A stretch of DNA of 64,000 nt from an uncultured bacterium (GCA_963807165.1 CAWDZM010000001.1:198306-262305), one strand, 5' to 3'. Positions 2,718-60,626 are shown, numbered from the stretch's first letter. Notes: a model not told the origin generated them from the letters alone. Program-made: numbers and translations.

Positions 2718-2809
2718 GGTGATTATTATACCGAAATCCATCCAACAGGCGCAACTTGATGACCGTCGGCTGTTACTATACAATATAGGCAGAAAGAGGA
2801 GGTTTTATC

Positions 2810-3499
2810 TTGAAATTGAAGTGGGCGATTTTTGCAATTGCTATTGCATTGCTTTGCCTTGCATCCCCAGCTGTGGCACGCGCTGATACCTTCACGCTAG
2901 GAACGGGGTATCAGTATGTAACCCTCAACAACCAATTTGTGGTCGGGCTCATCACCGGCAGTACGCTCAACGGCAAGGCCATCGGGCCCGTCATCTGTGA
3001 CACCTCCGATAAGGAGAGTTTCCTTGGGTCTACGTGGATGGTTAACGTGAACCCGCTGACTGGGCCATGGAGTCCTCCACCGATGTTTTCCGGCGTTGGC
3101 GCCACCGGCTATGAAGTGGCAGCAATCGCGGAATACGATATGACTCTGCCGGCCAATCAAAACCAGAACGAGCAAAATCTACTGCAAGATCTGGTGTGGG
3201 ATGAGATGATTCCGGGAAGCGGGGCGGCCATAACGGGCCTTCCTGTTGGCGCTGACAACACACTCCTTGCCCAAATAGCAACGGAGGTTGGAAACTACAA
3301 CTATTCCGGATCAATAATTCTCACCCCGGCCGGTAATGATCCAGATCAGGAATTTCTTGAAATCAATGCAGTCCCTGATCCGGTTCCCGAGCCAGCATCA
3401 CGAACCTTGACGTTAGTCGGACTCCTGTTCGGATTGTCAGCGCTGGGATACAAACAATGTTTCCGGCGCGCGCTTCAAACGCACCGACCGATAGACTAA
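2810..3499 (+). CDS. Secreted PEP-CTERM domain protein
   Basis: Signal peptide. C-terminus is VPEPAS + hydrophobic helix + RR (canonical PEP-CTERM sorting signal). TTG start preceded by AGAGGAGG. Confidence 0.7.
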   Translation: MKLKWAIFAIAIALLCLASPAVARADTFTLGTGYQYVTLNNQFVVGLITGSTLNGKAIGPVICDTSDKESFLGSTWMVNVNPLTGPWSPPPMFSGVGATGYEVAAIAEYDMTLPANQNQNEQNLLQDLVWDEMIPGSGAAITGLPVGADNTLLAQIATEVGNYNYSGSIILTPAGNDPDQEFLEINAVPDPVPEPASRTLTLVGLLFGLSALGYKQCFRRALQTHRPID

Positions 3500-3502
3500 T
3501 AC

Positions 3503-3540
3503 CGCTGATCCACTCCCCATGGATCGGCGGTTTTTTATCT
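3503..3540 (+). terminator. Rho-independent terminator: 11-bp stem ccgctgatcca/tggatcggcgg, then T6.
   Basis: Seen directly after the stop of the 2810..3499 gene. Confidence 0.5.
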
Positions 3541-3563
3541 CTGAAATGTGCTATCATTTTTAT

Positions 3564-4157
3564 ATGAACCAGAAAAAAATAGAGTCGGGGATTGATGGGC
3601 AGGAGCAGGAATTAGCGGCGGATGCCGTGCAAGAGGATAAAAAACCCACGCCAGAGGATTACCATGATTTCTTAGCTCAATTTTCGGTCACGCCGGAAGT
3701 CGAACAAAAACGAGCCGAACAGTTAGCCAAAGATCCTACCATGCTGAAGGTCATGGAAGATCGCAATGAGCGAATAAAATATCCGGAGGCATGGCAAAGG
3801 ACTCTCGAAGAATCCAAGGCAAAAGCGGTGGAGCAGTTAGGAAAAATTACCGCGCTTGAAGATGCTTTTAAAAAACTTCCACAGTCCGATGTGATGTTGC
3901 TTATAAAAGTAGATAGCAATGGAAAGTCCGTGAAGGTAGAGGCGAGCAAGGAAGTGCATCACGAGATTTTAAATACATTAGAATTATTCATTAACGATTG
4001 TAGCGAAGTGAGAATTCCAAAACGTTTTTACGGCACAGACGTTGAAGGTGTCCACTTCATCAGCCTATTTCCTGCATCAGGAGGTTATCGCACCTCTCCA
4101 TCGGATTTTTTTGCGCTAGCGAAGGAAGCACTCGAAAGCGCAAAGGAGGTTGAATAA
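3564..4157 (+). CDS. Hypothetical protein
   Basis: ORF 3519..4157. Start set at the internal Met (MNQKK) because the upstream part overlaps the terminator. Confidence 0.4.
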   Translation: MNQKKIESGIDGQEQELAADAVQEDKKPTPEDYHDFLAQFSVTPEVEQKRAEQLAKDPTMLKVMEDRNERIKYPEAWQRTLEESKAKAVEQLGKITALEDAFKKLPQSDVMLLIKVDSNGKSVKVEASKEVHHEILNTLELFINDCSEVRIPKRFYGTDVEGVHFISLFPASGGYRTSPSDFFALAKEALESAKEVE

Positions 4158-4207
4158 AAAAAATAAAAAGAAACCCGCCAAGCAATGTGTTTCCATTGGG
4201 CGGGTTT
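4156..4207 (-). terminator. Terminator for the minus-strand gene 4247..4969: hairpin aaacccgcc/ggcgggttt with a T-run on the minus strand.
   Basis: 9-bp stem. The A-run on the plus strand is a T-run on the minus strand. Confidence 0.45.
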
Positions 4208-4246
4208 GAGTTTAGGCGAGCACTATCCCAGTTTTGGGATGAATGG

Positions 4247-4969
4247 TTATAGGTTGGCTGAAAGGAGCTTTCGACGTGCGAGGCCAGCGGCAAAGACAAG
4301 CCCCGTTCCGAGCAGCATCAGAGACGAAGGTTCGGGCGTCGGTGCGACGGGGGTTAGGTCGATGGTAAGGCTTGGATCGATGGCATCTCCGCTTGTGGGC
4401 AATGCCGACAATGTGATGGTATAGGTGTCGGCGGCATTGGGGTTAAAGCTGAGCGGTGTCGCTAGAAACGCGAAGCCGAGATTCTCAGCATTCTGAAATC
4501 CATCGTCGCCCGGCTGCATCGCGCAACCCGAGCAGACAATTCCAGAACCGTTGGCCTGACCGTTGTCCGGCAACAGCGTTGGATTGAAGGAGACTACCGC
4601 GTTTGTTGTGTCGTTTGCAATGATCAGGTTGTAGGTGTACGCGCCCAAAGGGTCGCTCCCGGTATTCACGGAGAATGCGAAATCCCAATTGGCGAGCGTG
4701 CCAGCGTTTGGCGAATAGTAGTAGTCGTTCGTCGTTGGCGTGATCGGCCCCACAAAGCGGGTAATCGCTTCGAGCCCGAGTTGCAGAGTGCTTCCATCCG
4801 AATTTGTCGCAGTGAGTACATCCCAGCCGGCGTTGACGTTTCCGGTTCCAAAGTAGACCCCGGGGTTAGACAGACTGGAGTTGAAGGTCTCATCCGCGTG
4901 TGCAGTTGCCAATGTGGCTCCTCCCATCGCGGCCAAGGCCAAGAACAACATAAACTTTTTACTTTTCAA
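4247..4969 (-). CDS. Secreted PEP-CTERM domain protein
   Basis: Signal peptide. C-terminus is TPEPSS + hydrophobic helix + RRK. Confidence 0.7.
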   Translation of the reverse strand: MKSKKFMLFLALAAMGGATLATAHADETFNSSLSNPGVYFGTGNVNAGWDVLTATNSDGSTLQLGLEAITRFVGPITPTTNDYYYSPNAGTLANWDFAFSVNTGSDPLGAYTYNLIIANDTTNAVVSFNPTLLPDNGQANGSGIVCSGCAMQPGDDGFQNAENLGFAFLATPLSFNPNAADTYTITLSALPTSGDAIDPSLTIDLTPVAPTPEPSSLMLLGTGLVFAAGLARRKLLSANL

Positions 4970-5049
4970 GATTACTCCTCCTGATCGATTTATCCCTATA
5001 ACATAAGGGACGAAGAATATTGTATCCTAAATATGCAAAAAATACAAAT

Positions 5050-5120
5050 GCTGCGGGACTTGGATTCGAACCAAGATTAACGGATTCAGAGTCCGCGTGC
5101 CTACCATTAGCAGATCCCGC
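5050..5120 (-). tRNA. tRNA-Gln (anticodon CTG)
   Basis: Cloverleaf folded by hand: 7-bp acceptor stem, T-loop TTCGAAT, anticodon loop CTCTGAA. CCA is not encoded. Confidence 0.8.
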
Positions 5121-5123
5121 AAT

Positions 5124-5780
5124 TCAATATTCGCGAAAGGCAATGAGTTTTCTCAATTTCTCGACTTCCGCTTTTCTTCTTATCCGTATTGCATTATTAC
5201 GTACTTCGGGATGAAATTCAAGCCGCCGCAAAATGTCTTCGACGATATTCAATAATGATTGATTCTTATTTGAAAACGAGAAATTATAGGTGCAAGTTGG
5301 TAGGTGAATATTGAGGGAACCCTCTGCCTCGAATAATCCGCGAAGAAATCTTATGGAAAATGATTCGTTCTCGTTTATCCAATCCGGAAGAGTATACGGC
5401 ACATCTTTTCTATTACCGCTCGCTATCCCCAGCCGCTGGGAAATATATTTTTGGTATAAGCTGATCCGAAGCGCATTTACATCTTTTAGTTTGGTAACCG
5501 TAGGTTCGTTGCCAAATAAAATATGAGTTAATCTTGTGTACCGGCGGATAAATTCTGGGTTATTGCTATTGCCCACGATTATTAACCGCTCCGTTCGCGG
5601 GCATGCTTCAATATTTCCATCTCCAAGCACCACCCCGATATATTCAGCAAGATCACCGTTACGGGGAAGATCCGCATAGCGAACGCGGTGGTCGTCGCGC
5701 CATTTTTTAAAATTATCAATTTTTCTCGCCTTCATAGTGCGAGATATTTTTTCTGCGCGAGAAAATTTGTGATTTGGCAT
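5124..5780 (-). CDS. LAGLIDADG homing endonuclease, double-motif. Its stop codon lies 3 nt before the 5' end of tRNA-Gln.
   Basis: Motifs YIGVVLGDGNI and FLRGLFEAEGSL. Confidence 0.8.
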   Translation of the reverse strand: MPNHKFSRAEKISRTMKARKIDNFKKWRDDHRVRYADLPRNGDLAEYIGVVLGDGNIEACPRTERLIIVGNSNNPEFIRRYTRLTHILFGNEPTVTKLKDVNALRISLYQKYISQRLGIASGNRKDVPYTLPDWINENESFSIRFLRGLFEAEGSLNIHLPTCTYNFSFSNKNQSLLNIVEDILRRLEFHPEVRNNAIRIRRKAEVEKLRKLIAFREY

Positions 5781-5874
5781 ATAATCTTGTTCGGATTATA
5801 TACCTCCCGCATTAAATTTTTATTAAATCTCTATCTCTATTATTAAACTAGCACAGCCAAGCGAGCGCCTGCGT

Positions 5875-6978
5875 TTACATTAGCTGCTCCACTAGCGCCA
5901 CTTCGAGTGGGACGATGGCGAACGGGGAGTAGCGCATCTCCGCGTACGCGCGGATGAGCGCTTTAATGAACTTAACGAGCGTGGCAGTGTCTGCGGCCGT
6001 GCCGAGCGCTATTGCGCCCGCGACCTCGTCACGCGTGAGGTCGCGCTCCATCACCGACTTGAGCGACGGATTGACCTTAAGCGACAGCACTTTACGCAAG
6101 TAATGGATAAGGTCTTTAGTGAACTGAACAAGATTGTGGCCGTCCTCGTTCAGCTCATTCAGGTTGGCGAGCGCCGCTTTGACATCTTTTTTAACAATGA
6201 GTTCCGCAAGCTCGTGCACTTTCTTCAGCCCGGTGCGGCCGGTCACACGCTCCGCATCGGCAAGTGTGATATTTTTTTCGAGCGATGATATCTGGTCAAG
6301 CAACGATTCCGCGTCGCGGAAGCTGCCTTCCGCGGCGGCCGCGATGAGCTCGATCGCCGGCGCATCTATTGTTATCTTTTCCTTTGCCGCGATCGACGTC
6401 AGCTTTTCAATGATCGTCGCCTTGGTTAATTTTTTAAAAACGAACCGCTGTGCGCGAGAGGTAATTGTCGGCGGAAGTTTTTCAAACTCCGTCGTCGCCA
6501 AAATGATCACCGCATGCTTGGGAGGTTCCTCCAATGTTTTGAGCAGGGCATTGAACGCCGCGCCGGTGAGCATGTGCGCTTCGTCTATAATATAAACCTT
6601 GTGCTCGGCGCTCGCGGGCGCGGTGCGGATGTTTTCCTTGAGGTTGCGAATCTCGTCGATGCCGCGATTAGAGGCTGCGTCGATTTCTACGACATCGAAC
6701 GAATTCTGCGCATCGATCGCCAAGCACTCACGGCACCCGTTGCACGGCTCGCCGAGCGCGGCGAACTTTGGATCCGTGCGGCGCTTTTCGCAATTGAGCA
6801 GCTTTGCGATCAACCGCGCCGTCGTCGTCTTGCCAGTTCCCCGCGCGCCATAAAAAATGTAAGCCTGCCCGAGCCGGTTTGATTTTGCCGCATTCTTAAG
6901 AATCTCAACGTTCGTTTCTTGGCCGAGGACGTCGTCGAGTTTCTGTGGGCGATATTTGCGATAGAGGGCTTGTGCCAT
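5875..6978 (-). CDS. dnaX: DNA polymerase III subunit gamma/tau (short form)
   Basis: Walker A GARGTGKTT and clamp-loader motifs. TATAAT sits 8 nt upstream of the ATG on the minus strand. Confidence 0.85.
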   Translation of the reverse strand: MAQALYRKYRPQKLDDVLGQETNVEILKNAAKSNRLGQAYIFYGARGTGKTTTARLIAKLLNCEKRRTDPKFAALGEPCNGCRECLAIDAQNSFDVVEIDAASNRGIDEIRNLKENIRTAPASAEHKVYIIDEAHMLTGAAFNALLKTLEEPPKHAVIILATTEFEKLPPTITSRAQRFVFKKLTKATIIEKLTSIAAKEKITIDAPAIELIAAAAEGSFRDAESLLDQISSLEKNITLADAERVTGRTGLKKVHELAELIVKKDVKAALANLNELNEDGHNLVQFTKDLIHYLRKVLSLKVNPSLKSVMERDLTRDEVAGAIALGTAADTATLVKFIKALIRAYAEMRYSPFAIVPLEVALVEQLM

Positions 6979-7050
6979 GTGAGATTATTATAGCCGCAGT
7001 TGCATAATTATCAAATAAATGTCATAATCGTTATAGGAGGAAAGTTGCGG

Positions 7051-7176
7051 ATGTCGACGCTTCGAAATTACAGCCCGAGAGTAAGAATCATTCTATTTCT
7101 CTTGATCATAGTAGGGGTTCCAGGCGTATGTCTTTTGCTCATTGCTCACCCCAACTGTTTTCGCTGGCTTCACTAG
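7051..7176 (+). CDS. Possible 41-aa small hydrophobic protein. Not in the ORF track.
   Basis: ATG preceded by GGAGG at 8 nt spacing. Single TM-like segment. Followed by a hairpin plus T-run. Confidence 0.25.
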   Translation: MSTLRNYSPRVRIILFLLIIVGVPGVCLLLIAHPNCFRWLH

Positions 7177-7243
7177 CCCCGGAAGAAAAGCCTCGCGCTT
7201 GCTATCCCCGGGGCTTTTCTTTATTTATCATTAAATTTTTCGT

Positions 7244-8032
7244 ATGATGGAGATAATAGTCATCTCCATGGAATATGAAACGCGCGTAGGAGAGTTTAGC
7301 GGGCCGCTCGAGAAGCTTCTGGAGCTGATTGAGGCGGAAAAGATGGACATCAACGAGGTCAGCCTAGCCAAGGTCACGGATGATTTTTTGCGCTATCTGG
7401 AGACCTTTAAGGGCGGCCTGGAGATAAGTGCCGAGGGCATGACAGATGCGGAGAACAAATTTCGTATTGATCTTCGCGTCCTCGCGGATTTTGTTTCCGT
7501 CGCAAGCAAGCTGATCTTTCTCAAATCGAAATATTTATTGCCGGGCTTGGCACTTTCAGAAGAAGAAGAGGCGGACATTAAAGATCTCGAATCGCGTTTG
7601 CACATCTACCAACAACTCAAGCCTGCGATCAAGCTGATCAACCAACTCTGGGCTACGAGTCATCACTCATTCAGCCGTCCGTATCTGATCGGAAAGATGA
7701 CGATGCCCGGCCAGACGACTTTTTATCCTGGAAAAAGTTTGAGCACGGAAGCGCTCGCCGCGGCGCTTAGCAACATTTTCGAATCCATAAAGACGTACGA
7801 CATGGAGACGGAGACGATAAAAGAGAAGATCGTCACGCTGGAGGAAAAGATCAGTGAGGTGTTGGGGCGCATCCAAAAAGAAGGGGACATGCACTTCAAC
7901 GCGCTGTCCGGCGAGAAGTCGCGCGGCGAGATGATCGTGGTCTTCCTCGCAATCCTTCACCTCGCGCGCGAACAGCTCGTACTTTTGGAGCAAATGGAGA
8001 ATTTTTCTGATATAATGGTGAAGAAAAAATAA
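7244..8032 (+). CDS. scpA: Segregation and condensation protein A
   Basis: ScpA N-terminal motif (PLEKLLELIEAEKMDINEVSLAKVTDDFL). Gene order is scpA then scpB. Confidence 0.8.
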   Translation: MMEIIVISMEYETRVGEFSGPLEKLLELIEAEKMDINEVSLAKVTDDFLRYLETFKGGLEISAEGMTDAENKFRIDLRVLADFVSVASKLIFLKSKYLLPGLALSEEEEADIKDLESRLHIYQQLKPAIKLINQLWATSHHSFSRPYLIGKMTMPGQTTFYPGKSLSTEALAAALSNIFESIKTYDMETETIKEKIVTLEEKISEVLGRIQKEGDMHFNALSGEKSRGEMIVVFLAILHLAREQLVLLEQMENFSDIMVKKK

Positions 8033-8042
8033 TTAACTTTTC

Positions 8043-8636
8043 ATGAAAAACGGACGGGCGTCACTTGAGGCATTGCTATTTATCCATGGGGAACCACTTT
8101 CGTATAAAAAGATACAGGCTGTTTTAGGGATAGAAAAAGAAGAGCTGGAAACGATTATAAAAGAACTTGAAAGCGATCTCACAAACGATGGCCGTGGGTT
8201 GCAACTCGTTTCAGATCGCGAGAAGATCCAGCTTGCCACCAAGCCGGAGTTCAACGACATCCTCGAAAGTTTTATGAAGGAGGAGATTTCCGAGGATCTT
8301 TCACCCGCATCGCTCGAGGCGCTCTCTATTATTGCGTATCTTGGACCAATTTCCCGCGCGCGGTTGGAATATTTGCGTGGCGTGAACTCGATCGTCATCC
8401 TGCGCAGCCTGATGATCCGCGGACTCGTCGAGCGGTTTCCCGATCCGGAGCGCCCCGCGAGCTTTTTATACCGCGGCACATTCGACCTCATGAAGCACTT
8501 GGGTATAAAAGAAAAGGAGGCGTTGCCGGATTACGAAAAATTTCAGGAATTATTAAAAGTATTCGACGCACCAAGCACGGAACCCGCGGGTAGTCCAAGC
8601 GCGGGCAATCCGCCAGCGCCAACCGCGACACAATAA
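8043..8636 (+). CDS. scpB: Segregation and condensation protein B
   Basis: ScpB winged-helix motifs (LEALLFIHGEPLSYKKI). Confidence 0.8.
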   Translation: MKNGRASLEALLFIHGEPLSYKKIQAVLGIEKEELETIIKELESDLTNDGRGLQLVSDREKIQLATKPEFNDILESFMKEEISEDLSPASLEALSIIAYLGPISRARLEYLRGVNSIVILRSLMIRGLVERFPDPERPASFLYRGTFDLMKHLGIKEKEALPDYEKFQELLKVFDAPSTEPAGSPSAGNPPAPTATQ

Positions 8637-8646
8637 TCAGCGCATT

Positions 8647-9666
8647 ATGAAACACTCCGAGAAATTCATTTTTTTATTGGTGGTGATTGGCGCGATTTTT
8701 TTTGCCCGCCTTATCTATCCGAATATTTCCGGCGTGCCATCATTCGCGAGCACCGACCCACCACAGTCCGCTGACGCGCAGATAATCACCGCGCCACCAA
8801 CGCTCGTATTGCCACAAACCTCTGTAAGCGATGCGGGCGGCGTCGGATCCGGCGGTGCGAATGCGGGCGTGGATAAAAATGAAAATGCCAGCGGAACAAT
8901 GGCGGTCACAAATTCTGTTTTCTCTCGCATCAATGACACGCCGCTTCCGAGCTTCGATAATACAGCCTACATGATAGCGGATCTTTCGACCGGCGCTGTG
9001 CTCTCCGGCGCAAATACCACGACGCGCTGGCCAACCGCATCGCTTACCAAGCTCCTCACGGCGACACTGGTATTTGATCAACTGAGCACAAGTACCAAGA
9101 TCACTATCACTCCGGAGATGTTCGCGGCGGATCCGACGGAAGAAACGCTCGTCGTCGGCGGTACGTACACCGTTGAAGATCTTCTCCATGTGATGCTGAT
9201 GCCATCCAGCAATGTTGCCGCACAGGCATTCGCGGATTATATCGGTCAAACACAATTTATGAACGAGATGAATGCTCGTGCACAACAGTGGGGGATGACC
9301 GATAGCTACTTCGCCGATCCATCCGGCATTTCCGCCGCAAATGAATCAACCGCAAATAATCTTTTGATCCTCGCCCAACATGTCTATAATAATTATCCAG
9401 GCATTCTCGCGATCACGGATACGCACCAAACGACGATCACGGAATTGAACAGTGGCGAGAAGGTGGCCGTAACGAGTATCAATGATTTTGCGGGTGAACC
9501 GGGATTTGTTGGCGGAAAAACAGGCCACACCACCCAAGCAGGAGGCAATCTTTTATCGATTTTTAATGATGATGGACATCCGGTGTTGATCATCGTGCTC
9601 AACACGATCGATCGCTTTGGAGACACATCAAAGCTTTACACCTGGTTCCGGGCGAACTATAAATAA
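8647..9666 (+). CDS. dacA: D-alanyl-D-alanine carboxypeptidase (S11 penicillin-binding protein)
   Basis: SxxK (ASLTK), SxN (SSN) and KTG (KTGHT) motifs. N-terminal TM. Confidence 0.8.
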   Translation: MKHSEKFIFLLVVIGAIFFARLIYPNISGVPSFASTDPPQSADAQIITAPPTLVLPQTSVSDAGGVGSGGANAGVDKNENASGTMAVTNSVFSRINDTPLPSFDNTAYMIADLSTGAVLSGANTTTRWPTASLTKLLTATLVFDQLSTSTKITITPEMFAADPTEETLVVGGTYTVEDLLHVMLMPSSNVAAQAFADYIGQTQFMNEMNARAQQWGMTDSYFADPSGISAANESTANNLLILAQHVYNNYPGILAITDTHQTTITELNSGEKVAVTSINDFAGEPGFVGGKTGHTTQAGGNLLSIFNDDGHPVLIIVLNTIDRFGDTSKLYTWFRANYK

Positions 9667-9677
9667 ATTATAACGAT

Positions 9678-10740
9678 ATGGTACTTATGCATTCCCTATT
9701 GCTCAGCGAAGCGGTGCGCGTCACTATTTTGACGACGATATCATTCGTGGTCGCGCTCCTCGTTACACCGCTGTGGTATAAGTTCATCATCAAATATAAA
9801 TTCGGGAAGCAGTTGCGTAATGGCGCGGAAACGCCGGTATTTGCGGAGCTCCATAAGAATAAAGCCGGCACGCCGACGAGCGGCGGCATTATCATCTGGA
9901 CAACCGTGATCGGTATGGCGATCATCTTCGATGTCATGCGTCACATTTTTGGCGGCGGATGGAATTATTTTAACTTCGTTGATCGCGCGGAAACCTATCT
10001 GCCGATCGCGGCATTCCTTATCGCTGCATTGCTTGGACTGCTCGACGACTGGCTTAATGTACTTAAAATTGGCGGCGCGCCAGGCGGGGGATTAAAAATT
10101 CGCCAGAAGGCGATTGGTACGTCTAATCATCGCGCTCATCGGCGCATGGTGGTTCTACTTCCGCCTTGGATGGAACGTACTCACCATCCCGTTCGTTGGT
10201 AATATTACGATCGGCTGGTGGTATATCCCTATATTTATTTTTATCATTTTTGCCGCAGCATTTTCTGCAAACGAAACCGATGGCTTGGACGGTCTCCTTG
10301 GTGGTGTATCGCTCTTTGCGTTCGTGTCGCTCGCCACGGTCGCATTTGTTCTGCACGACTATAACCTTGCCGCATTTTGCGGAGCCGTCATCGGAGCACT
10401 TCTCGCATTCCTGTGGTTTAACATCTATCCGGCAAAATTTTTTATGGGAGACACCGGCTCGATGTCGCTCGGCATTACGATCGGCGTCATCGCAATGCTC
10501 ACCAATACCACGCTCATCCTTCCATTCTTTACCATCATTCTCGTCGTCGAATCACTTTCCGTCATCATCCAGGTAATCTCCAAAAAATTGCGGCGAGGAA
10601 AGAAAGTATTCCGCTCCGCGCCGATCCATCACCACTTTGAAGCACTCGGCTGGCCCGAGTCGCAAGTTACCATGCGTTTTTGGATCGTCTCCGCGGTATT
10701 CTGCGCACTCGGACTCGTTATATTCTTCCTTTCTCACTAA
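9678..10740 (+). pseudogene. mraY: Phospho-N-acetylmuramoyl-pentapeptide transferase MraY, with a +1 frame break near 10120. Probably a 1-nt insertion artefact.
   Basis: Two ORFs (9678..10202 and 10114..10740) together cover MraY. Removing one nucleotide restores the frame. Confidence 0.8.
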
Positions 10741-10820
10741 GAATTAATTATTAAAATAAGATAAAAAAATGGAAGGCACGATGTGTGTCTTCCATTTGCT
10801 CCATGGCCGAGGCCGAGATG

Positions 10821-11417
10821 CTACAGGTTGTGTTGTATGAGGCGCGGTTGGATGCTGAAGCGCCGAAGGCCGAAGGCGAAAGCCAGCAGGCCGGAACCGA
10901 GTAAAAGTAATGATGATGGTTCCGGAACTGGCGGCGTTGCTATTTCTGTCAGTGTAAATGTCCCAGGCGTCTGGACGAAGGTGCTCTCGAGAATGGTATC
11001 GCCAGCAAAGATGTTTATCTGAACGCCGTCGGTGGCGAGAAAGAGAACTCCAGCCGAATCGAGTTCTTCTCCCCCAGATCCAGGAAAAGAGAACTTGTTA
11101 TCAAAGAAACAATTTCCTCCGGCTGGGCACAATACTGCCCCGGGGAAATATCCATCTGCCGGGCCCGCGTTGTTGCTGGTCGGATTGAGCGAACCGGTTG
11201 TCCCCGTCGTTAGAAAAAGTGGATCGCCATCAACTACAAGCACCGTGCCGTCGGTGGCCTGATATTGGCCATCGCCAAGAGGTACAGCGGTAAGAGTGCC
11301 TGTCAGAATGGGCGTTTCGTCTGGTGCCGTAAAGGTGAATGTGAAGCTGTCAGCGACAGCCGCACGAGATGCGATCCCGAGAACTGCGATCGCGAGAAGT
11401 GCAGGAATTTTTTTCAT
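10821..11417 (-). CDS. Secreted PEP-CTERM domain protein
   Basis: Signal peptide. C-terminus is VPEPSS + hydrophobic helix + RR. Confidence 0.7.
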   Translation of the reverse strand: MKKIPALLAIAVLGIASRAAVADSFTFTFTAPDETPILTGTLTAVPLGDGQYQATDGTVLVVDGDPLFLTTGTTGSLNPTSNNAGPADGYFPGAVLCPAGGNCFFDNKFSFPGSGGEELDSAGVLFLATDGVQINIFAGDTILESTFVQTPGTFTLTEIATPPVPEPSSLLLLGSGLLAFAFGLRRFSIQPRLIQHNL

Positions 11418-11500
11418 CTAAAACAATCCCCCTCATCAGAGTTGACAAAAGTTCTGTCTGGTGTCGAGTATATATTAAAATTCCATAAAGTCAATCTTAT

Positions 11501-11529
11501 TTGACTATCCCTAACCATTTGTTATACTT
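11501..11529 (+). promoter_or_regulatory. Sigma-70-type promoter of rpsB: TTGACT, 17-nt spacer, TATACT. The ATG is 6 nt downstream, so the mRNA is leaderless.
   Basis: Hexamers read directly from the sequence. No SD upstream of the ATG at 11536. Confidence 0.45.
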
Positions 11530-11535
11530 TCTCGT

Positions 11536-12339
11536 ATGCCAGAAGACACAATAGTATCTATGCAAAACAACCAGACGTCCGGATATCCGGCGGAAGGATC
11601 CCGCGAAATGATGGATGCGGGAGTTTTTTATGGCCGCAAAAAAAGCAAGACGAATCCCAAAATGCGTCCGTTCGTGCTCGCTAATCGTGGCGGAATCGAG
11701 ATCATCAACCTCCAGAAGACGGAGGAGTTGATGGATACCGCAGCAGCGTTCATCAAAGAGAAGTCCCGGAATAACGGTTTGGTATTGCTCGTCGGCACAG
11801 AGCCGGCGGCGGAAATGAGCGTCACGGCACTCGCAAAGAAGCTCGGCATTCCGTACGTCACAACCCGCTGGGTCGGTGGTGCTATTACGAACTTCAAGAT
11901 CATCAATAAGCGCATCGAGCATCTTAAAACACTTCGCACCGATCTCGCGTCCGGCGCGCTCGTCAGCAAGTATACCAAGAAGGAGCGTCTTGATATGGAA
12001 AAAGAAATGAAGCGTTTGGAAGTACTCATGGGCGGTCTTGAAAATATGACAAAGGAGCCAGATGTCGTCGTTATCATCGATCCGATTTTGCATCACACCG
12101 CGCTCAGCGAAGCGAATACAAAAAAGATCCCCGTGGTCGCGCTGGCAAACGTGGACGCAGATCCGGACAAGATCGCATATCTCGTTCCAGGCAACGATAA
12201 GGCGAAGAAGAGCATTGAGTGGTTCATTGAGCGCGTGGGTAAAGCCTATGAAGAGGGGGTAAAGTTGCGTGCAGTGGCGCCGACACCTTCCACGCCGATG
12301 GCGGCAGTGGTTGCCTCAGCACCGGTAGAGGAAAAGTAG
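11536..12339 (+). CDS. rpsB: 30S ribosomal protein S2
   Basis: Full-length S2 homology. Classic rpsB-tsf pair. Confidence 0.9.
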   Translation: MPEDTIVSMQNNQTSGYPAEGSREMMDAGVFYGRKKSKTNPKMRPFVLANRGGIEIINLQKTEELMDTAAAFIKEKSRNNGLVLLVGTEPAAEMSVTALAKKLGIPYVTTRWVGGAITNFKIINKRIEHLKTLRTDLASGALVSKYTKKERLDMEKEMKRLEVLMGGLENMTKEPDVVVIIDPILHHTALSEANTKKIPVVALANVDADPDKIAYLVPGNDKAKKSIEWFIERVGKAYEEGVKLRAVAPTPSTPMAAVVASAPVEEK

Positions 12340-12378
12340 TGGTGCGCTTGGAAAAGTAATGTAGTATAATTTGAAACT

Positions 12379-12840
12379 ATGGAAATCAAAACAACGGTGA
12401 CGGCAGAGATGGTTCAAAAATTGCGCGATGTGACGAGCGCGGGAGTGATGGATTGCCGCAAGGCGCTCATCGAAGCAAACGGCGACGTTGATGCTGCGGT
12501 CAAGATCATTCACGAGAAGGGATTGGCAAAGGTAGAGAAGCGCGCGGATCGCGAGACTGGCGCGGGACTTGTGCAGTCGTATGTTCACAACGAGCGCATC
12601 GGCGTGTTGCTGCGTTTGAGCGCAGAGACCGACTTTGTTGTTCGCTCGGAACCTTTCAAGGCGCTGGCCCACGATCTCGCGATGCATATCGCGGCGGCGG
12701 CACCAAAAAATGTTGAGGAATTGCTTGCACAGCCGTATGTAAAGGATGAATCTCGCACGGTAAAGGATGTGGTAGGCGAGGTCATTGCAAAGGTGGGGGA
12801 GAACGTCGCCGTCGGCGAGTTCTATCGCGTCGAAGCATAA
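12379..12840 (+). CDS. tsf: Elongation factor Ts (short form)
   Basis: EF-Ts UBA-like N-terminus (VTAEMVQKLRDVTSAGVMDCRKAL). TATAAT sits 8 nt upstream of the ATG. Confidence 0.85.
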   Translation: MEIKTTVTAEMVQKLRDVTSAGVMDCRKALIEANGDVDAAVKIIHEKGLAKVEKRADRETGAGLVQSYVHNERIGVLLRLSAETDFVVRSEPFKALAHDLAMHIAAAAPKNVEELLAQPYVKDESRTVKDVVGEVIAKVGENVAVGEFYRVEA

Positions 12841-12864
12841 CGCCCGCACGCACCGCGCATTCAC

Positions 12865-13200
12865 ATGGAATTAATCTTTACTATAATCCTGATGATCTGC
12901 CTGGGCACCGTACTGTACCTGACAGTGCAAGCATTACCTCGCATTGAAGAAGTGCCGGTGGATGAGAAAGGATTCCTCGAGCGCTGGGCGCATTCCGAAA
13001 TGCCGGAAAAGATCGACGCCGCATTCAATAATTTCTTGCTCAAGTTTTTGCGCCGCATAAAAGTGCTCATCTTAAAGTTCGACAACGCGCTTGCGAAGCA
13101 TCTTCAAAAGATCAAACCAGAAGAAGACAAGCGTCCAACCATTGATTTTAAAGAGATTAGCGGGCAGGGGAACAAGGAGGAATCGGACGAAAAAATTTAA
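12865..13200 (+). CDS. Hypothetical small membrane protein
   Basis: N-terminal TM helix, Lys/Glu-rich tail. Confidence 0.35.
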   Translation: MELIFTIILMICLGTVLYLTVQALPRIEEVPVDEKGFLERWAHSEMPEKIDAAFNNFLLKFLRRIKVLILKFDNALAKHLQKIKPEEDKRPTIDFKEISGQGNKEESDEKI

Positions 13201-13235
13201 TGAAGTTTTAATGCGGTTTTTGTTATGGTTATTCC

Positions 13236-14021
13236 ATGGCAAAACGTTGGACTCACAGCGAGGAGCTATCTTACGGTGATCAATTGCGGAAGTTATATCT
13301 ATTGGAAAATAGAACCATTTCTGATATCGGTTTGATATTAAATATATCGCCGAGTGCGGTATACCATCGGCTGATAAGACTAAAAATTCCGGTTGTGCGA
13401 GAGAAAAAAGCTCATTATTTAAATCGTCGATCGGATATTATTATCCCAACGCACCATTCCAACACTCTCGCAGAAATTTTTGGCATCATGTTGGGCGATG
13501 GGAAATTATCTCATTACCAGACTATGGTCACGCTGGGGAATAAGGAGGAAGTATACGCCAAGTATGTCGCCGAACTGCTCATTAAAATTTTTGGGGTTCA
13601 TCCAAAAATAATTACCGACCCTCATAAAGGTTATCGAACGGTTTATTTAGGATCAACGGAAATAGCAGCGTGGTTGGTAAGCGAAGGATTGGTATATAAT
13701 AAAGTTGCGTCACAAGTTGATGTTCCTCTGTGGATACTGGATAAAGAGCAATATATGAAACGATTCGTTCGTGGATTTTTTGATACCGACGAATCGATCT
13801 ATAAATTGAAATATGGCGCACAATTATCTTTTACCAATTATTCCGTCCCGTTGCTTATATCTTTACAATGGCTACTAAGACGGTTAGGATATAGAGTGTC
13901 CGAAATAAGCGGACATCGATTTTATCTTACCAAACAAGGCGAGATAGAAAGATTTTTTAAAGAGATCGGCCCGTGCAACCCAAAACACGTCAAGCGATTT
14001 AATCTCTTTATTAATTCTTAA
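13236..14021 (+). CDS. LAGLIDADG homing endonuclease, double-motif, with an N-terminal HTH. Its stop codon lies 11 nt before tRNA-Tyr.
   Basis: Motifs IFGIMLGDGKL and FVRGFFDTDESI. Paralogous to 5124..5780. Confidence 0.8.
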   Translation: MAKRWTHSEELSYGDQLRKLYLLENRTISDIGLILNISPSAVYHRLIRLKIPVVREKKAHYLNRRSDIIIPTHHSNTLAEIFGIMLGDGKLSHYQTMVTLGNKEEVYAKYVAELLIKIFGVHPKIITDPHKGYRTVYLGSTEIAAWLVSEGLVYNKVASQVDVPLWILDKEQYMKRFVRGFFDTDESIYKLKYGAQLSFTNYSVPLLISLQWLLRRLGYRVSEISGHRFYLTKQGEIERFFKEIGPCNPKHVKRFNLFINS

Positions 14022-14032
14022 TATAAGCTCAT

Positions 14033-14116
14033 GCGTCGGTGGCAGAGCGGTCAAATGCTCGAGACTGTAAATCTCGCGCCCTATGGGCTACGCAGGTTCG
14101 AATCCTGCCCGGCGCA
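14033..14116 (+). tRNA. tRNA-Tyr (anticodon GTA), long variable arm
   Basis: Cloverleaf folded by hand. Anticodon loop CTGTAAA, T-loop TTCGAAT. CCA is not encoded. Confidence 0.85.
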
Positions 14117-14135
14117 CACATAGAAAAGAAAAAAC

Positions 14136-14185
14136 GCCTTGTGGATTTCGTTAAAACGAATATCCAAAAGGCGTTTGAGACTCGC
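14136..14185 (-). terminator. Terminator hairpin aaacgcctt/aaggcgttt with a T-run on the minus strand, downstream of 14219..14464.
   Basis: 9-bp stem seen in the sequence. Confidence 0.35.
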
Positions 14186-14218
14186 TCTCAATAATGAGAG
14201 CCGATCAATCTTGAAGTG

Positions 14219-14464
14219 CTAATGGCCGGGATCGCTTTGGCCCATTTCGGCGATAACCTGATCCTCTCCGGATTCCCGGAAGTAGTAGCTTGCGCAGATA
14301 TAGAGCCCAAGAAATGCAGTCACCGAGATAGAGCCGGTCACCACCCCAATGTGATGATGCTTTGTGACTAATGCGCCCACGGAAGCCACGGCACTCAAGC
14401 AAAACAGAAGATGAAACATGAAGCAGGCCCTATTCCAACGACCCACTACAACGGATTGATCCAT
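14219..14464 (-). CDS. Hypothetical small membrane protein
   Basis: 81 aa, two hydrophobic helices. Confidence 0.3.
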   Translation of the reverse strand: MDQSVVVGRWNRACFMFHLLFCLSAVASVGALVTKHHHIGVVTGSISVTAFLGLYICASYYFRESGEDQVIAEMGQSDPGH

Positions 14465-14570
14465 ATACTCCTCCTCAAAGATCGATTTCTACTGGCACAA
14501 ATCTATTATAACACTGTAGTTTATATATTGTCAATTTTCTTTTTCTGTAAGCAAGCGCCATAATAGAGCC

Positions 14571-15107
14571 ATGCAAGAATACGTAACCGACGCGGTGGTA
14601 CTCCGAAAAGATTCACAAGGCGATATCGACGGGCGCTATACGCTTTTTACGAAGCGATTTGGAAAAATCCGCGCGAAGGCAAAGAGTTCACGTAAGATCA
14701 CTTCAAAACTTGCGCCGCATCTTGAGCCCGGCATCGTGGCAAAAATACGCTTTATTGATACGAAGGGGACACAGCTGATCGATGCGCTCAAATCCGCACG
14801 GCTCGCCCTCCCGCTTGCGGACCTGCACTTTTTGAGCCAGCTTTTGCCGGATGCGGAACCGGAACCAGCACTGTGGGAATTATTAATAAACGGCACGGAC
14901 GATGCCACGACTGGCGATAAAAGTACCAGCTGGTCATGGGCAAAGGCGCTCGCGGTGCTTGGCTGGGATCCGGGAGAAGCGGAGTGCGTGGACTGCGGCG
15001 CAAAGCGACCATCATACTTTTATATCACGCGTCAAGAATTTTATTGCCGCACGCATGCTTCAAAAGCGCGCAAAGATGCGGTAATATTCATAGATGCCCG
15101 AGTATAA
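14571..15107 (+). CDS. recO: DNA repair protein RecO-like (short)
   Basis: N-terminal OB-fold pattern (DAVVLR...LFTKRFGKIRAKAK) and a C-terminal C-x2-C...C zinc finger. Confidence 0.55.
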   Translation: MQEYVTDAVVLRKDSQGDIDGRYTLFTKRFGKIRAKAKSSRKITSKLAPHLEPGIVAKIRFIDTKGTQLIDALKSARLALPLADLHFLSQLLPDAEPEPALWELLINGTDDATTGDKSTSWSWAKALAVLGWDPGEAECVDCGAKRPSYFYITRQEFYCRTHASKARKDAVIFIDARV

Positions 15108-17007
15108 TCCGAATTCCGTCTGGGAGAGCAAGGAAAAGAAATATGAATATACTCCGCCCGGCGGAAGATCGTCGCTTCAACCGAGCGGTTCCATACGGCC
15201 GCCGGATGGCGCGCCGCTTAATAGTGATGAACCGAAACAGCCCTCATTCTTCCGCCGCCATGGGCTGATCTTTTTTACCATCGGTATTTTTCTTGCGATC
15301 GGGCTCGCGGCGTTCATCTATTATCTTTTACTCCCACCACCGACGCCGAATGTGGTCATCTCATTTTCCAATCCCGGCTCAATCACCGTCGGCGTTCCAT
15401 TTCCAATCATCATCACGGTATCGAATGAATCAAAAAGCGTCCTCGAGAACGCGACATTGAATATTATGCTCCCCGGTGGAATTTCTTTTGCGAGCGGCAC
15501 GACGCCGACGCAATCCGTCGGCACGCTGAGCTCCCAAACGATCAATCCGCCGGATACGATTTGGCTCGTTGCCGGCGCGAACTCCGGTGCGGCATCGATT
15601 GTTGGAACGACAGAGACCCTGAATACGACGCTGACCTACCAGACCGCCGAAACCGCAAGCACAACGTATACCGCGAGTGCGAATACATCGCTCTCTATCG
15701 GCACGCAATCCGCGCTCACGCTTTCATATAATGCTCCGTCGAGCATTTTTAGTGGGCAAAATTTCGATATCACCGTAAATTATCAGAATGATACGCCAAA
15801 TGCTCTGCAGGGAGTTCAGCTCCAGATGCAATATCCACCGGCCTATCATTTTGTGATGAGTAGTGCGACATTGCCGATCGATGCGGGCAACGACACCTGG
15901 AATCTTGGCACGCTCGCGGCGAACGCGACGGGCACGCTTGTCATCACCGGCAATATCGTGGGACCGGCGCAAGCGCACTATCAGCTGACCGGCACGATTG
16001 GCGCAACGTTTTCCGGAGAGAATTATCCTGCAATTGCCGCGCCCGTAAGCTTCGTCGTCACTCCATCTCCGCTCTCGCTCGCGATCGCACTGAACGGCTC
16101 CTCCACATATATAGCAAAATTGGGGGACGGCCTTAACTATGTGCTGACGTATACGAATAATTCCAACGTAGCGTTCAAGAATGTGAATATTTCCGCCGTG
16201 CTCACCGGATCGATGTATAATCTTTCGTCGTTGAAAACAAGCGGGTCATTTAATTCGCGATCGAATACCATCACATGGTTCGCGGCAAACACCCCGGCAC
16301 TCGCATCACTCGCGCCCGGACAATCTGGAACGGTGGACTTCACTATCAATACCCTGCAAACATTCCCAACACAGCTTGTGAGCGAGGGGTATAAAAATTA
16401 TTCGCTGGACGTGACGGCCACGGCAGTGTCGCCGACTGTGCCACCGAATACCGCCGGAACAAACACCACATCTATCACCGAACTCACAAGCAAAGTGGGC
16501 GGAGAGATCACGCTCACCGCGAACGGCTATGTAAAGGAAACGACGCCAGGAATCGCAAACACCGGCCCGTACCCGCCAGTGGTGAACCAACCCACGCTGT
16601 ATACAATCCATTGGGATATCGCTAATTATTCCACGGACGCGACGAGTGTGACCATATCGGCATATCTGCAATCGGGGACGACGTTCACCGGTGTGGCGAC
16701 CAGCACAGGACTAGCATCCAACACGATCCCGACGTATGATGCGGGAACGGGGCTTGTCTCGTGGACCATCCCATCCATTTCGGCAACCACGGGCGTGATC
16801 AGCCCTCCAGTGCAGGCGATCTTCCAGGTGAGCAATACGCCGGCGGTCAATCAGGTAGGGGAAACGGTAACCCTACTCGGACCGACAACGCTCAGTGCGA
16901 TTGATGAATATACCGGCATGGCCGTGACGAGCGCCGCTCCGGCCGTGACCACCTATCTTCCAAACGACCCCTCCGTCGACAGTCAACCCGGCGACGTAAC
17001 ACAATAA
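15094..17007 (+). CDS. Large cell-surface protein with an N-terminal TM anchor and Thr/Ser/Asn-rich repeated beta-domains. It resembles the conserved-repeat domain seen in some bacterial and archaeal surface proteins (DUF11).
   Basis: 637 aa. TM helix after a ~60-aa cytoplasmic N-terminus, then internal repeats. Confidence 0.5.
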   Translation: MPEYNPNSVWESKEKKYEYTPPGGRSSLQPSGSIRPPDGAPLNSDEPKQPSFFRRHGLIFFTIGIFLAIGLAAFIYYLLLPPPTPNVVISFSNPGSITVGVPFPIIITVSNESKSVLENATLNIMLPGGISFASGTTPTQSVGTLSSQTINPPDTIWLVAGANSGAASIVGTTETLNTTLTYQTAETASTTYTASANTSLSIGTQSALTLSYNAPSSIFSGQNFDITVNYQNDTPNALQGVQLQMQYPPAYHFVMSSATLPIDAGNDTWNLGTLAANATGTLVITGNIVGPAQAHYQLTGTIGATFSGENYPAIAAPVSFVVTPSPLSLAIALNGSSTYIAKLGDGLNYVLTYTNNSNVAFKNVNISAVLTGSMYNLSSLKTSGSFNSRSNTITWFAANTPALASLAPGQSGTVDFTINTLQTFPTQLVSEGYKNYSLDVTATAVSPTVPPNTAGTNTTSITELTSKVGGEITLTANGYVKETTPGIANTGPYPPVVNQPTLYTIHWDIANYSTDATSVTISAYLQSGTTFTGVATSTGLASNTIPTYDAGTGLVSWTIPSISATTGVISPPVQAIFQVSNTPAVNQVGETVTLLGPTTLSAIDEYTGMAVTSAAPAVTTYLPNDPSVDSQPGDVTQ

Positions 17008-17021
17008 AATTATTTAATACT

Positions 17022-18452
17022 ATGGGAAAGAACGCAGATGCAAAAAATGAGGCTGGGCTAATGGAAAAGATCGTATCGCTCGCTAAGCGACGGGGGTTTG
17101 TGTTCCCTGGATCAGAGATTTATGGTGGCCTCGCCAACTCTTACGAATATGGCCCAGTAGGAGTGGAACTTAAAAAAAATATCCAGGATGAATGGTGGCG
17201 CGTATTTGTGCGCGGGCGGAGCGACATGGTCGGCCTCGATTCATCTATTATCTTGCATCCAAAAGTATGGGAAGCGTCGGGGCACGTCGCTGGGCTCGTT
17301 GATGCAATGGTGGAGTGCAAAGCATGCCACACGCGCACGCGGGCAGATCATTTGATTGAGAACCATTACGAAGCGAAGGGTGAGAAAATAAGCGTTGAAG
17401 GAAAAACTGAAGCGGAGCTCGATGAGATCATCAACGCCGAAAAAATAAAGTGTCCGAATTGCGGCAAGTTCGACTGGACGCCCGTTCGCAAATTCAATTT
17501 ATTATTTGAAACACACGTCGGCATCGTGCCGGAAGCGCAATCAAAAGTATATTTGCGCGGCGAAACGGCGCAGGGCATTTTTATCAGCTTTAAAAACATT
17601 TTGGATTCCACGCGCGTGCGATTGCCATTCGGCGTCGGCCAGCTCGGAAAGAGTTTCCGCAACGAGATCACCAAGGGTAACTTTATTTTCCGCACGCTCG
17701 AATTCGAACAGGCAGAGATCGAATACTTCTTTGATCCGGAAACCACCGACTGGAAAGAGTTATATGAAAAATGGAAAGGTGATATGTGGAGCTTCGTAAC
17801 CGGAAATCTTGGTGTGAAGGCCGACGCCCTGCGCTGGCGCGAGCATGGCGATGAAGAGCGCAGCTTCTACAGTAAGCGCACGGAAGACATGGAATACAAG
17901 TTTCCGTTCGGCTTTAAAGAACTCTGGGGATTGGCATATCGCACCGACTATGACCTTAACCAACACATGAAGTTCTCCGGCGTGGATCTTTCATACACCG
18001 ATCCAACGTCCGGCAAAAAGTTTGTGCCGCACGTGATTGAACCGGCAGTCGGCGTGAACCGCCTTATGGCGATGGTCATGCTTGACGCCTACACCGAAGA
18101 CGGCGATCGCGTTTATCTAAAACTCAAGCCGCGCCTTGCCCCCTACAAAGCCGCAGTATTCCCGTTGCTCGCCAATAAGCCGGAGCTCGTGGAGACCGCG
18201 CGGAAGATCTACGACGCGCTCCGTGCGGTCTTTACCGTCGCCTGGGATGATCGCGGCAACATCGGCAAGCGTTATTATGCGCAGGACGAGATCGGCACGC
18301 CATTCTGCATCACAGTAGATTTTGCCACGATCGAAGGAGGGGATGATGGCGAAAAAGGCACCGTTACCGTGCGCGATCGGGATACGGGAAAGCAGGAACG
18401 CATCGCGATCAGTGAACTGGAAGACTATCTCGATGGCAAAATTTATCATTAA
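17022..18452 (+). CDS. glyQS: Glycine--tRNA ligase (dimeric class II type)
   Basis: Full-length GlyRS homology. Confidence 0.9.
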   Translation: MGKNADAKNEAGLMEKIVSLAKRRGFVFPGSEIYGGLANSYEYGPVGVELKKNIQDEWWRVFVRGRSDMVGLDSSIILHPKVWEASGHVAGLVDAMVECKACHTRTRADHLIENHYEAKGEKISVEGKTEAELDEIINAEKIKCPNCGKFDWTPVRKFNLLFETHVGIVPEAQSKVYLRGETAQGIFISFKNILDSTRVRLPFGVGQLGKSFRNEITKGNFIFRTLEFEQAEIEYFFDPETTDWKELYEKWKGDMWSFVTGNLGVKADALRWREHGDEERSFYSKRTEDMEYKFPFGFKELWGLAYRTDYDLNQHMKFSGVDLSYTDPTSGKKFVPHVIEPAVGVNRLMAMVMLDAYTEDGDRVYLKLKPRLAPYKAAVFPLLANKPELVETARKIYDALRAVFTVAWDDRGNIGKRYYAQDEIGTPFCITVDFATIEGGDDGEKGTVTVRDRDTGKQERIAISELEDYLDGKIYH

Positions 18453-19749: not shown

Positions 19750-19878
19750 ACAGTTTTGCAATCATTAAAAAATCATTAAATTAGTTTTGACAATTTTGCG
19801 TAGAGATTTATTATTGGAATATGCCTGTGAGGATCTAGAGTTCTCAATCGGCGAAAAGTGCTGATGACAGGCGGGCAG

Positions 19879-19905
19879 GGTCCACGCTTATGGCGTGGAT
19901 TTTTG
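19879..19905 (+). terminator. Rho-independent terminator: hairpin gtccacgc/gcgtggat, then ttttt.
   Basis: Seen ~130 nt after the murA stop. Confidence 0.45.
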
Positions 19906-27985: not shown

Positions 27986-28000
27986 AGAATATAAAATATA

Positions 28001-28711: not shown

Positions 28712-28730
28712 TCAGTGCTGGATTACGCGA

Positions 28731-39416: not shown

Positions 39417-40930
<1,514 letters not shown>

Positions 40931-52143: not shown

Positions 52144-52158
52144 ATAATAATTATCCCG

Positions 52159-59079: not shown

Positions 59080-60626
<1,547 letters not shown>

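Follow-up and report, generated by a model that had tools for sequence, protein, structure and literature searches.

Why should a bacterium with a reduced genome carry proteins that end in a sorting signal known from diderm bacteria that make exopolysaccharide (EPS)? This question is raised by a stretch of 64,000 nucleotides from an uncultured bacterium (CAWDZM010000001.1:198306-262305 of assembly GCA_963807165.1; hereafter the window), in which a first-pass annotation had noticed three open reading frames (ORFs) with a PEP-CTERM tail, i.e., Pro-Glu-Pro (PEP), a hydrophobic helix and a basic cluster, the signal recognized by exosortase (EpsH/XrtA). The likeliest account, held with somewhat more confidence than doubt when both of its parts are taken together, is that the three genes arrived by horizontal gene transfer (HGT) as separate single-gene cassettes and that the tail now works as a membrane anchor. 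For ORF2 on its own, HGT is highly probable. Such single-gene transfer is the key point that the first-pass annotation missed. The taxonomic surprise is real, and horizontal acquisition would largely explain it.

All three ORFs were recovered on the positions and strands annotated earlier, each with PEP, helix and basic cluster. ORF1 (2810-3499, plus strand, 229 amino acids (aa)) comprises a predicted signal peptide cut after AVARA, a beta-rich domain without an assigned family and a degenerate PEP-CTERM-like tail. ORF2 (4247-4969, minus strand, 240 aa) has a signal peptide, a beta-sandwich domain and a canonical PEP-CTERM tail; its public gene call starts at a Met six codons in (4951), which gives 234 aa. 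ORF3 (10821-11417, minus strand, 198 aa), oriented opposite to both neighbouring genes, combines a signal peptide with a small eight-stranded beta-barrel and a canonical PEP-CTERM tail. The proteins end in ...VPEPASRTLTLVGLLFGLSALGYKQCFRRALQTHRPID (ORF1), ...TPEPSSLMLLGTGLVFAAGLARRKLLSANL (ORF2) and ...VPEPSSLLLLGSGLLAFAFGLRRFSIQPRLIQHNL (ORF3). The tripartite signal, with a helix of about 15-20 residues, is thus C-terminal in three out of three, the motifs VPEPAS, TPEPSS and VPEPSS, respectively, preceding the hydrophobic stretch and the basic cluster. Past the tail, ORF1 continues for 9 residues and ORF3 for 12, the latter extension being found in a Terracidiphilus homolog as well. According to a hydropathy script, each protein has exactly two hydrophobic segments, the N-terminal signal peptide and the C-terminal helix. 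Each signal peptide ends in AxA followed by Asp (ARA/D, AHA/D and AVA/D), as read from the same script and by inspection rather than by a dedicated predictor. Between signal peptide and tail, all three are enriched in Ser, Thr, Asn and Gly.

Curated profiles distinguish ORF1 from the other two. PF07589 (cut-off 20.7 bits) matches ORF2 with 25.8 and ORF3 with 28.7 bits, and TIGR02595 (cut-off 16) matches them with 20.6 and 22.7; the matched domains cover residues 210-233 of ORF2 (4271-4342, minus strand) and residues 163-186 of ORF3 (10860-10931, minus strand). ORF1 stays below both cut-offs, without a match to either model at E<=1, and its sole profile match is that of its tail to NF038129 (E = 0.19). 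The tail in question (3386-3469, plus strand, residues 193-220) reads PEP-ASR-TLTLVGLLFGLSALGY-KQCFRR and, compared with PEPSTLSLL and PEPGTLSFL in its relatives, has an extra charged Arg three residues after PEP. Because both curated models fail, ORF1 is classed merely as PEP-CTERM-like. On these profile matches, PEP-CTERM membership is strict for ORF2 and ORF3, while ORF1 is PEP-CTERM-derived at the family level only. The canonical sorting signal first ascribed to all three proteins therefore stands for ORF2 and ORF3 and not for ORF1; likewise, the profile searches named at that time as a possible refutation accepted the former two and rejected the latter.

The failure of ORF1 in both models is what would be expected if such tails were ordinary C-terminal membrane anchors containing Pro-Glu-Pro by chance. 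However, ORF2 and ORF3 score above the cut-offs, and over their full length they are homologous to families with an invariant PEP, most members of which contain PF07589; chance resemblance is thereby effectively refuted for these two proteins. Moreover, the tail of the ORF1 family matches the tails of the other two families in profile-profile comparison (E = 1e-8 and 4e-6), and a six-frame scan of the whole window found PEP, hydrophobic stretch and basic C-terminus in no other ORF. Altogether, chance resemblance is left with an almost vanishing probability.

Among themselves, the three proteins have little in common besides these signals. In BLASTP, alignment is restricted to the signal peptide and the tail. 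With hhalign, the last 28-41 positions align in two pairs of families, and of the 78 columns aligned between the ORF1 and ORF2 families only the tail portion is conserved. A remote kinship of the three passenger domains was considered and ruled out, as the tails alone align profile-profile. The first-pass annotation was right in seeing no other resemblance, and its expression 'three paralogous substrates' has to be given up: to judge from the alignments, ORF1, ORF2 and ORF3 are not paralogs but proteins of separate origins, unrelated outside the signal peptide and the tail.

The identity of the organism that carries them follows from several lines of evidence. The window proteins are recorded in identical form from a single contig in NCBI/ENA (726,381 bp). 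The window DUF763 protein belongs to a cluster of at least 90% identity with a protein of 'Candidatus Paceibacterota bacterium', which in NCBI taxonomy stands for the phylum Minisyncoccota (candidate phyla radiation (CPR)/Patescibacteria). Peptidoglycan and division genes are present (MraY, MurG, FtsW, a D-Ala-D-Ala carboxypeptidase and an M23 peptidase), together with ComEC, a VirD4-like coupling protein and free-standing LAGLIDADG endonucleases, EF-Ts is short (153 aa), and a 16S rRNA gene stands without a 23S gene at its side. The single contig, the protein cluster and the gene content back the 'probable CPR genome' proposed earlier; a soil bacterium of the CPR (Minisyncoccota) with a genome of about 0.73 Mb is supported as the source by these sequence data. 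Bacteria of this group are regarded as having no outer membrane. ORF1, ORF2 and ORF3 are thus proteins of a known kind in an unexpected host.

How the genes are placed in this genome becomes clear from a relative, JGI contig Ga0558093_0000012 (483 kb; hereafter L013), whose DnaX protein is at least 90% identical. The shared genes have 73-82% nucleotide identity, and blastn shows L013 to be collinear with the window over GlyRS, RecO, tRNA-Tyr, EF-Ts, RpsB, MraY, carboxypeptidase, ScpB, ScpA, DnaX and tRNA-Gln. ORF3 lies within an insertion of about 700 nt (10741-11440), missing in L013, that separates the stop codon of MraY from the conserved promoter of rpsB: by blastn collinearity and pairwise alignment, this spacer measures 783 nt in the window versus about 90 nt in the relative. 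ORF2, a 212-aa ORF and ORF1 are situated on the 3′ side of tRNA-Gln(CTG) (5050-5121, minus strand), which forms the edge of a variable region. The 212-aa ORF (3519-4157, plus strand, 43.8% GC) between ORF1 and ORF2 is part of the variable islet; it has no Pfam or NCBIfam match and is present in an independent Logan contig as well. On the basis of this synteny, ORF1, ORF2 and ORF3 are lineage-specific single-gene insertions. The comparison with relatives that had been proposed as a check gave a divided outcome, since L013 is without ORF3 and has other content at the ORF1/ORF2 site, while an ORF1 homolog occurs in a second CPR contig.

In L013, the region 3′ of tRNA-Gln (11129-21104) contains a serine recombinase/resolvase, a phage RepO-like gene, an OLD-family nuclease and a type II/IIG methyltransferase pair, and is a mobile or defence (restriction-modification) island. 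The same tRNA thus flanks different cargo in two related CPR genomes. An integrative island with an att site derived from tRNA-Gln was also considered for the window and rejected, as no tRNA-Gln-derived direct repeat bounding the ORF1/ORF2 islet was found; the sole repeat is a 15-nt chance pair.

Insertions of this kind can also be mimicked by an assembly or binning artefact, in which acidobacterial fragments are misjoined to a CPR contig. The nearest relatives of the proteins are indeed found in Acidobacteriota-type genomes, and frameshifts in MraY and GltX suggest an error-prone long-read assembly. Nevertheless, each of the three genes is a single ORF with CPR housekeeping genes on both sides. 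Both sets of junctions are repeated in Logan contigs, an independent assembly (run ERR10755936), of which one spans LAGLIDADG, ORF2, the 212-aa ORF, ORF1, a CobA-like gene and beyond (5886 nt, 99.98% identity) and another MraY, ORF3 and RpsB (1604 nt, 100% identity). This agreement makes a chimeric assembly very unlikely, and the physical linkage to CPR genes is thereby established. In addition, the GC content of the three genes (53-56%) falls inside the range of the window and is, like their GC at third codon positions (GC3), nearer to the CPR background than to the donor homologs. Since the best homolog shares no more than 75% identity, no donor fragment with a matching sequence is known. 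Taken together, an artefact is very improbable.

The origin of the genes is best documented for ORF2. It has 81 homologs of up to 75% identity, and PEP and a basic residue are invariant in the family. The homologs with sufficient flanking sequence belong to genomes that are evidently not CPR, on contigs with a GC content of 57-68%, versus about 50% for the window. One homolog (P0045, 69% identical) is located inside a Wzy/Polysacc_synt/GT4 exopolysaccharide locus in which four tandem PEP-CTERM paralogs are called and an adjacent 211-aa gene bears a fifth PEP-type tail. Another (P0050, 60%) adjoins a TonB-dependent receptor with a CarboxypepD_reg domain and a 2-oxoacid dehydrogenase complex, and a third (P0092, 48%) is found among fumarase, NAD kinase and MFS genes on a 508-kb scaffold. 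The possibility that a further relative on an 865-kb contig (P0118) represents another small genome was rejected, as this is a metabolically rich scaffold with 68% GC and not CPR. When the family alignment was compared with 185,579 species-representative genomes, 8 loci were obtained, of which five belong to Terracidiphilus, Bryobacteraceae or Bryobacterales (Acidobacteriota), three to metagenome-assembled genomes (MAGs) of Alphaproteobacteria and none to CPR. In a neighbour-joining tree, the CPR ORF2 is nested inside a crown clade and has sequences of Terracidiphilus and Bryobacteraceae as sister groups, Bryobacterales and the Alphaproteobacteria MAGs being more basal.

Tandem PEP-CTERM paralogs of the donor-type genomes have almost identical tails (TPEPSSLLLLGTGLLGLAFVAFRRAKASG...) on unrelated passenger domains (L002 8602-13965, L019 13-2032, L022 3865-5655 and L027 3-1881), which suggests that they were homogenized or co-evolved strongly with a single exosortase. 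In the CPR window, by contrast, the three tails differ among themselves.

For ORF3, a word-indexed search yielded a single cluster of 31% identity, a member of which, MGA2635995.1, is annotated as 'PEP-CTERM sorting domain-containing protein [Terracidiphilus sp.]'. Both proteins agree to their last residues (...RRFSIQPRLIQHNL in ORF3 and ...RKAKPAGPILHN in MGA2635995.1). An exhaustive search retrieved 144 distant relatives with 28-55% identity, most of them 160-205 aa long and aligned end to end, by which the idea of ORF3 as a near-orphan was overturned. PF07589 is present in 36 of 41 relatives sampled, and the only named member of the family is from Terracidiphilus.

ORF1 differs in having two relatives only. 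The first, P0123 (51% identity), is encoded on an 80.5-kb contig of 52-53% GC with small-genome-like genes (type IV pilin, rpsL/rpsG/fusA, LeuRS, TGT and many small genes of unknown function), the lytic transglycosylase of which clusters at 90% identity or more with a 'Minisyncoccia bacterium' protein. The second, P0124 (34%), is known from contigs of 3-4 kb with 42% GC, and a metagenome scan with the ORF1 family produced nothing beyond the P0124 contig already known. The tail of P0123 scores just around the cut-offs (16.3 versus 16 for TIGR02595, 20.6 versus 20.7 for PF07589) and that of P0124 reaches 19.5 for PF07589. Such borderline or degenerate tails are what one would expect without selection for recognition by an exosortase. 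The ORF1-family gene has a higher GC content than its surroundings on each of the three contigs. Judging from these few sequences, ORF1 belongs to a tiny family common to another CPR genome.

Composition adds a further indication. The codon-usage fit of each of the three genes is about -0.005 (z about -1.7), lower than in any gene of the window not classed as accessory (0.07-0.19 for every core gene), and resembles that of the other accessory genes of the window. The GC3 of ORF2 (64%) is between that of its closest homologs (73-74%) and the mean of the CPR genes (59%), which, combined with the poor codon fit, is in line with transfer followed by partial amelioration. In view of homology, tree and composition, ORF2 most likely derives from EPS-producing diderms of the Acidobacteriota type (Terracidiphilus/Bryobacteraceae-like) in the same habitat, and ORF3 probably comes from Acidobacteriota-type diderms as well.

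Whether the tails are still processed is a separate question. In the system described by Haft et al. (2006), the sorting enzyme EpsH/exosortase is a membrane protein with at least 8 transmembrane helices and conserved Cys, Arg and His residues, and all organisms with PEP-CTERM proteins have an outer membrane and EPS genes (PMC1569441). Measured against this rule, the presence of such proteins in a minimal-genome organism is as unexpected as the first-pass annotation held it to be. All window proteins without an assigned function and all membrane proteins were scanned with Pfam and NCBIfam, the housekeeping genes being identified from sequence or from the called genes of the relative. No match to the exosortase/archaeosortase family was obtained among the window proteins scanned, i.e., in 64 kb of the 726-kb genome, nor was an exosortase found in the approximately 38 of 80.5 kb inspected around P0123, the CPR homolog of ORF1. 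An EPS locus of the Wzx/Wzy/Polysacc_synt type is absent from the window too. The combination of outer membrane and EPS genes that accompanies a functional system is therefore lacking here, as judged by taxonomy for the former and by the genes of the window for the latter.

A working system, with an exosortase gene elsewhere in the genome as the first-pass annotation predicted, would imply that a resident enzyme of the exosortase family cleaves the tails at PEP and re-anchors the proteins to a lipid or an envelope acceptor, analogous to archaeosortase A. It is known that exosortase relatives (archaeosortases) act in single-membrane cells. Several observations are compatible with this and at the same time weigh against the tail being a mere anchor on imported proteins. 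Firstly, two canonical domains and one degenerate domain lie within 10 kb. This count, two strict and one degenerate in the 64-kb window, would, with the degenerate one included, exceed the number of '>2' PEP-CTERM proteins per genome by which the founding paper called a genome positive and which tracked the presence of EpsH, the median being 8 (PMC1569441). Secondly, PEP is retained in every family member examined, including that of the second CPR contig; although the sequences have diverged by 50-70%, the motif is intact in the three genes and the two ORF1 relatives, which could reflect selection by a processing enzyme. Thirdly, the ORF1 family occurs in two CPR contigs, a hint that it has been retained within CPR. 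Other limits concern the favoured account itself. The sequence covers 64 kb of a 726-kb genome, and the absence of an exosortase holds for the window alone. The closest relatives of ORF2 (73-75% identity, on short contigs) are assigned to donor-type organisms by composition, neighbours and tail type and not by name. Lastly, fold searches gave no functional clue to the surface display and matrix binding that we infer: the AlphaFold model of ORF2, a beta-sandwich followed by a C-terminal helix, has a mean predicted local distance difference test score of 74.7, and its matches in the PDB are generic immunoglobulin-like folds with a TM-score of 0.34 or lower.

On the other hand, the genes came separately by HGT and are missing in the syntenic relative, so their co-occurrence need not mean that a resident system exists. 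The degenerate tail of ORF1 and the absence of an exosortase match and of an EPS locus in the sequence inspected also argue against processing, and no report that links PEP-CTERM or exosortase to CPR/Patescibacteria was found in the literature searched. A resident exosortase system is consequently regarded as possible though rather unlikely. There is also a precedent for PEP-CTERM genes on their own: Chlorobium tepidum has two of them and no EpsH, and was called a degenerate case (PMC1569441). Together with single-gene HGT, this precedent weakens the need for a cognate exosortase.

Under the favoured account of separate acquisition with the tail as anchor, each protein would be a Sec substrate whose signal peptide is removed after AxA. 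As the cell would have no outer membrane, the helix and the basic cluster at the C-terminus would act as a stop-transfer anchor, and the beta-sandwich or beta-barrel domain would be displayed on the cell surface. There it may plausibly contact the exopolysaccharide matrix or the surface of neighbouring or host cells. A signal peptide combined with a C-terminal helix and a basic cluster corresponds to a type I anchored surface protein and makes further processing unnecessary; anchoring would not depend on an exosortase that removes the tail.

The three proteins can be compared with several known systems. They share with the PEP-CTERM proteins of EPS-producing diderms (EpsH/XrtA substrates) a signal peptide, a small domain rich in Ser, Thr, Asn and Gly, a tail of PEP, helix and basic cluster, and an organization in single-gene units, and ORF2 and ORF3 are full-length homologs of Acidobacteriota members of this group. 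They differ by their CPR host of about 0.73 Mb and by a window in which no exosortase, EPS locus or sigma-54 motif is seen. Chlorobium tepidum resembles the present case in having few PEP-CTERM genes and no exosortase, here as seen within 64 kb, consistent with remnants or imports rather than a working system; however, the genes discussed here are, as the synteny shows, recent insertions into a reduced genome, with an exosortase absence that applies to the window, and not leftovers of a lost system. In haloarchaea, archaeosortase A processes the tripartite C-terminal signal of PGF-CTERM proteins at a single membrane, after which the protein is re-anchored to a lipid. This would be the mechanistic analogue if an enzyme of the exosortase family exists in the CPR bacterium, although the motif is PGF instead of PEP and the visible sequence has no archaeosortase or exosortase gene. 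Finally, PepA of Zoogloea (NF033554), which is associated with flocs, is an example of small PEP-CTERM proteins in or near EPS loci with a role in the matrix, comparable to the ORF2 homolog P0045. There is no significant full-length similarity to PepA, ORF3 giving a weak, sub-threshold match to NF033554 (20.2 bits versus a cut-off of 80), and a matrix role of the CPR proteins is inferred only.

HGT from diderm donors into Patescibacteria has been documented and serves as a hint of host association (PMC12455944), which makes the imported genes a testable clue to the partners of this soil lineage of the Paceibacteria type. A more specific scenario can be proposed, to which we give a low probability: a soil Minisyncoccota epibiont may have taken PEP-CTERM proteins of the matrix or surface from its Acidobacteriota hosts (Terracidiphilus/Bryobacteraceae-like) and may show them on its single membrane, either tail-anchored or exosortase-processed, in order to dock into the exopolysaccharide of the host. 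If host capture is true, the PEP-CTERM genes would indicate, from sequence, which organism serves an uncultured CPR lineage as host. Should an exosortase be present, a PEP-CTERM sorting system would for the first time be known from a bacterium that lacks an outer membrane, and the accepted taxonomic limit would need revision; should it be absent, a sorting signal would have been turned into a plain membrane anchor, and the case would be a clean example of this from nature. The importance of the locus would thus come from an exosortase in a CPR genome or from a demonstrated link to an acidobacterial host, should either be true. It also shows what reduced-genome bacteria take in, namely surface proteins, in cassettes of one gene that bring their own promoter.

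The expression signals fit such an arrangement. Upstream of ORF1, a sigma-70-like site (TTGATG-17-TACAAT; 2756-2784, plus strand) was identified by consensus match only, and a GC-rich hairpin of 12 bp with a T-run (3501-3531, plus strand) directly follows the stop codon, which suggests that ORF1 is monocistronic. ORF3 is preceded, about 50 nt before its ATG, by a second sigma-70-like site (TTGACT-16-TATACT; 11467-11494, minus strand), again a consensus match only (10 of 12). A single-gene arrangement with its own promoter-like and terminator-like sites is present. PEP-CTERM genes are known to form single-gene operons, in Proteobacteria with a sigma-54 (-24/-12) site upstream (PMC1569441). A match to this sigma-54-type site, a feature specific to Proteobacteria, was not found upstream of ORF1, ORF2 or ORF3.

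Other features of the window concern the neighbourhood of these genes. Each of three free-standing LAGLIDADG_3 endonuclease genes is followed, after at most a dozen bases and on the same strand, by a tRNA gene, i.e., 5124-5780 with tRNA-Gln at 5050-5121 (minus strand), 13236-14021 with tRNA-Tyr at 14033-14117 (plus strand) and 56992-57675 with tRNA-Leu at 56909-56990 (minus strand). In the two that were measured, GC is 39-41%, versus about 50% for the window. Beside tRNA-Gln of L013, a DinB-family gene takes the place of the endonuclease. MraY (9678-10740, plus strand) is split in two overlapping frames (9678-10202 and 10114-10740) and is intact in the syntenic relative (350 aa); glutamyl-tRNA synthetase (GltX; 39417-40870, minus strand) is split over three (40340-40870, 39685-40491 and 39417-40172). 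Both splits reflect either indels introduced by a long-read assembly or essential genes that have truly become pseudogenes.

With regard to the cell envelope, a 637-aa protein with DUF11/CLIPPER repeats (15094-17007, plus strand) has a conserved counterpart of 641 aa in the corresponding place of the relative. Unlike the imported PEP-CTERM proteins, it is probably a large surface protein of native origin. A MacB-type permease, an ABC ATPase and an HlyD-family adaptor are encoded together at 26738-30308 (minus strand) in a presumably single-membraned cell; in diderms, such a trio partners an outer-membrane channel. At 50296-53454 (minus strand), a VirD4/TraG-like coupling ATPase of 615 aa precedes a multi-pass membrane protein of 431 aa without a Pfam or NCBIfam match, and both are possibly part of a CPR type IV secretion or DNA-uptake apparatus. 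The 16S rRNA gene is complete (59074-60631, minus strand; 1352 bits to RF00177) and no gene can be called with confidence in its flanks (58245-59073 and 60632-61361). As neither a 23S nor a 5S gene adjoins it, the rRNA genes are unlinked. Lastly, an islet of about 35% GC versus 50% (41817-43240, minus strand), placed between MurG and an NYN-domain gene, encodes a 322-aa HATPase_c-domain protein and a 152-aa protein without a family match, and is probably another foreign insertion.

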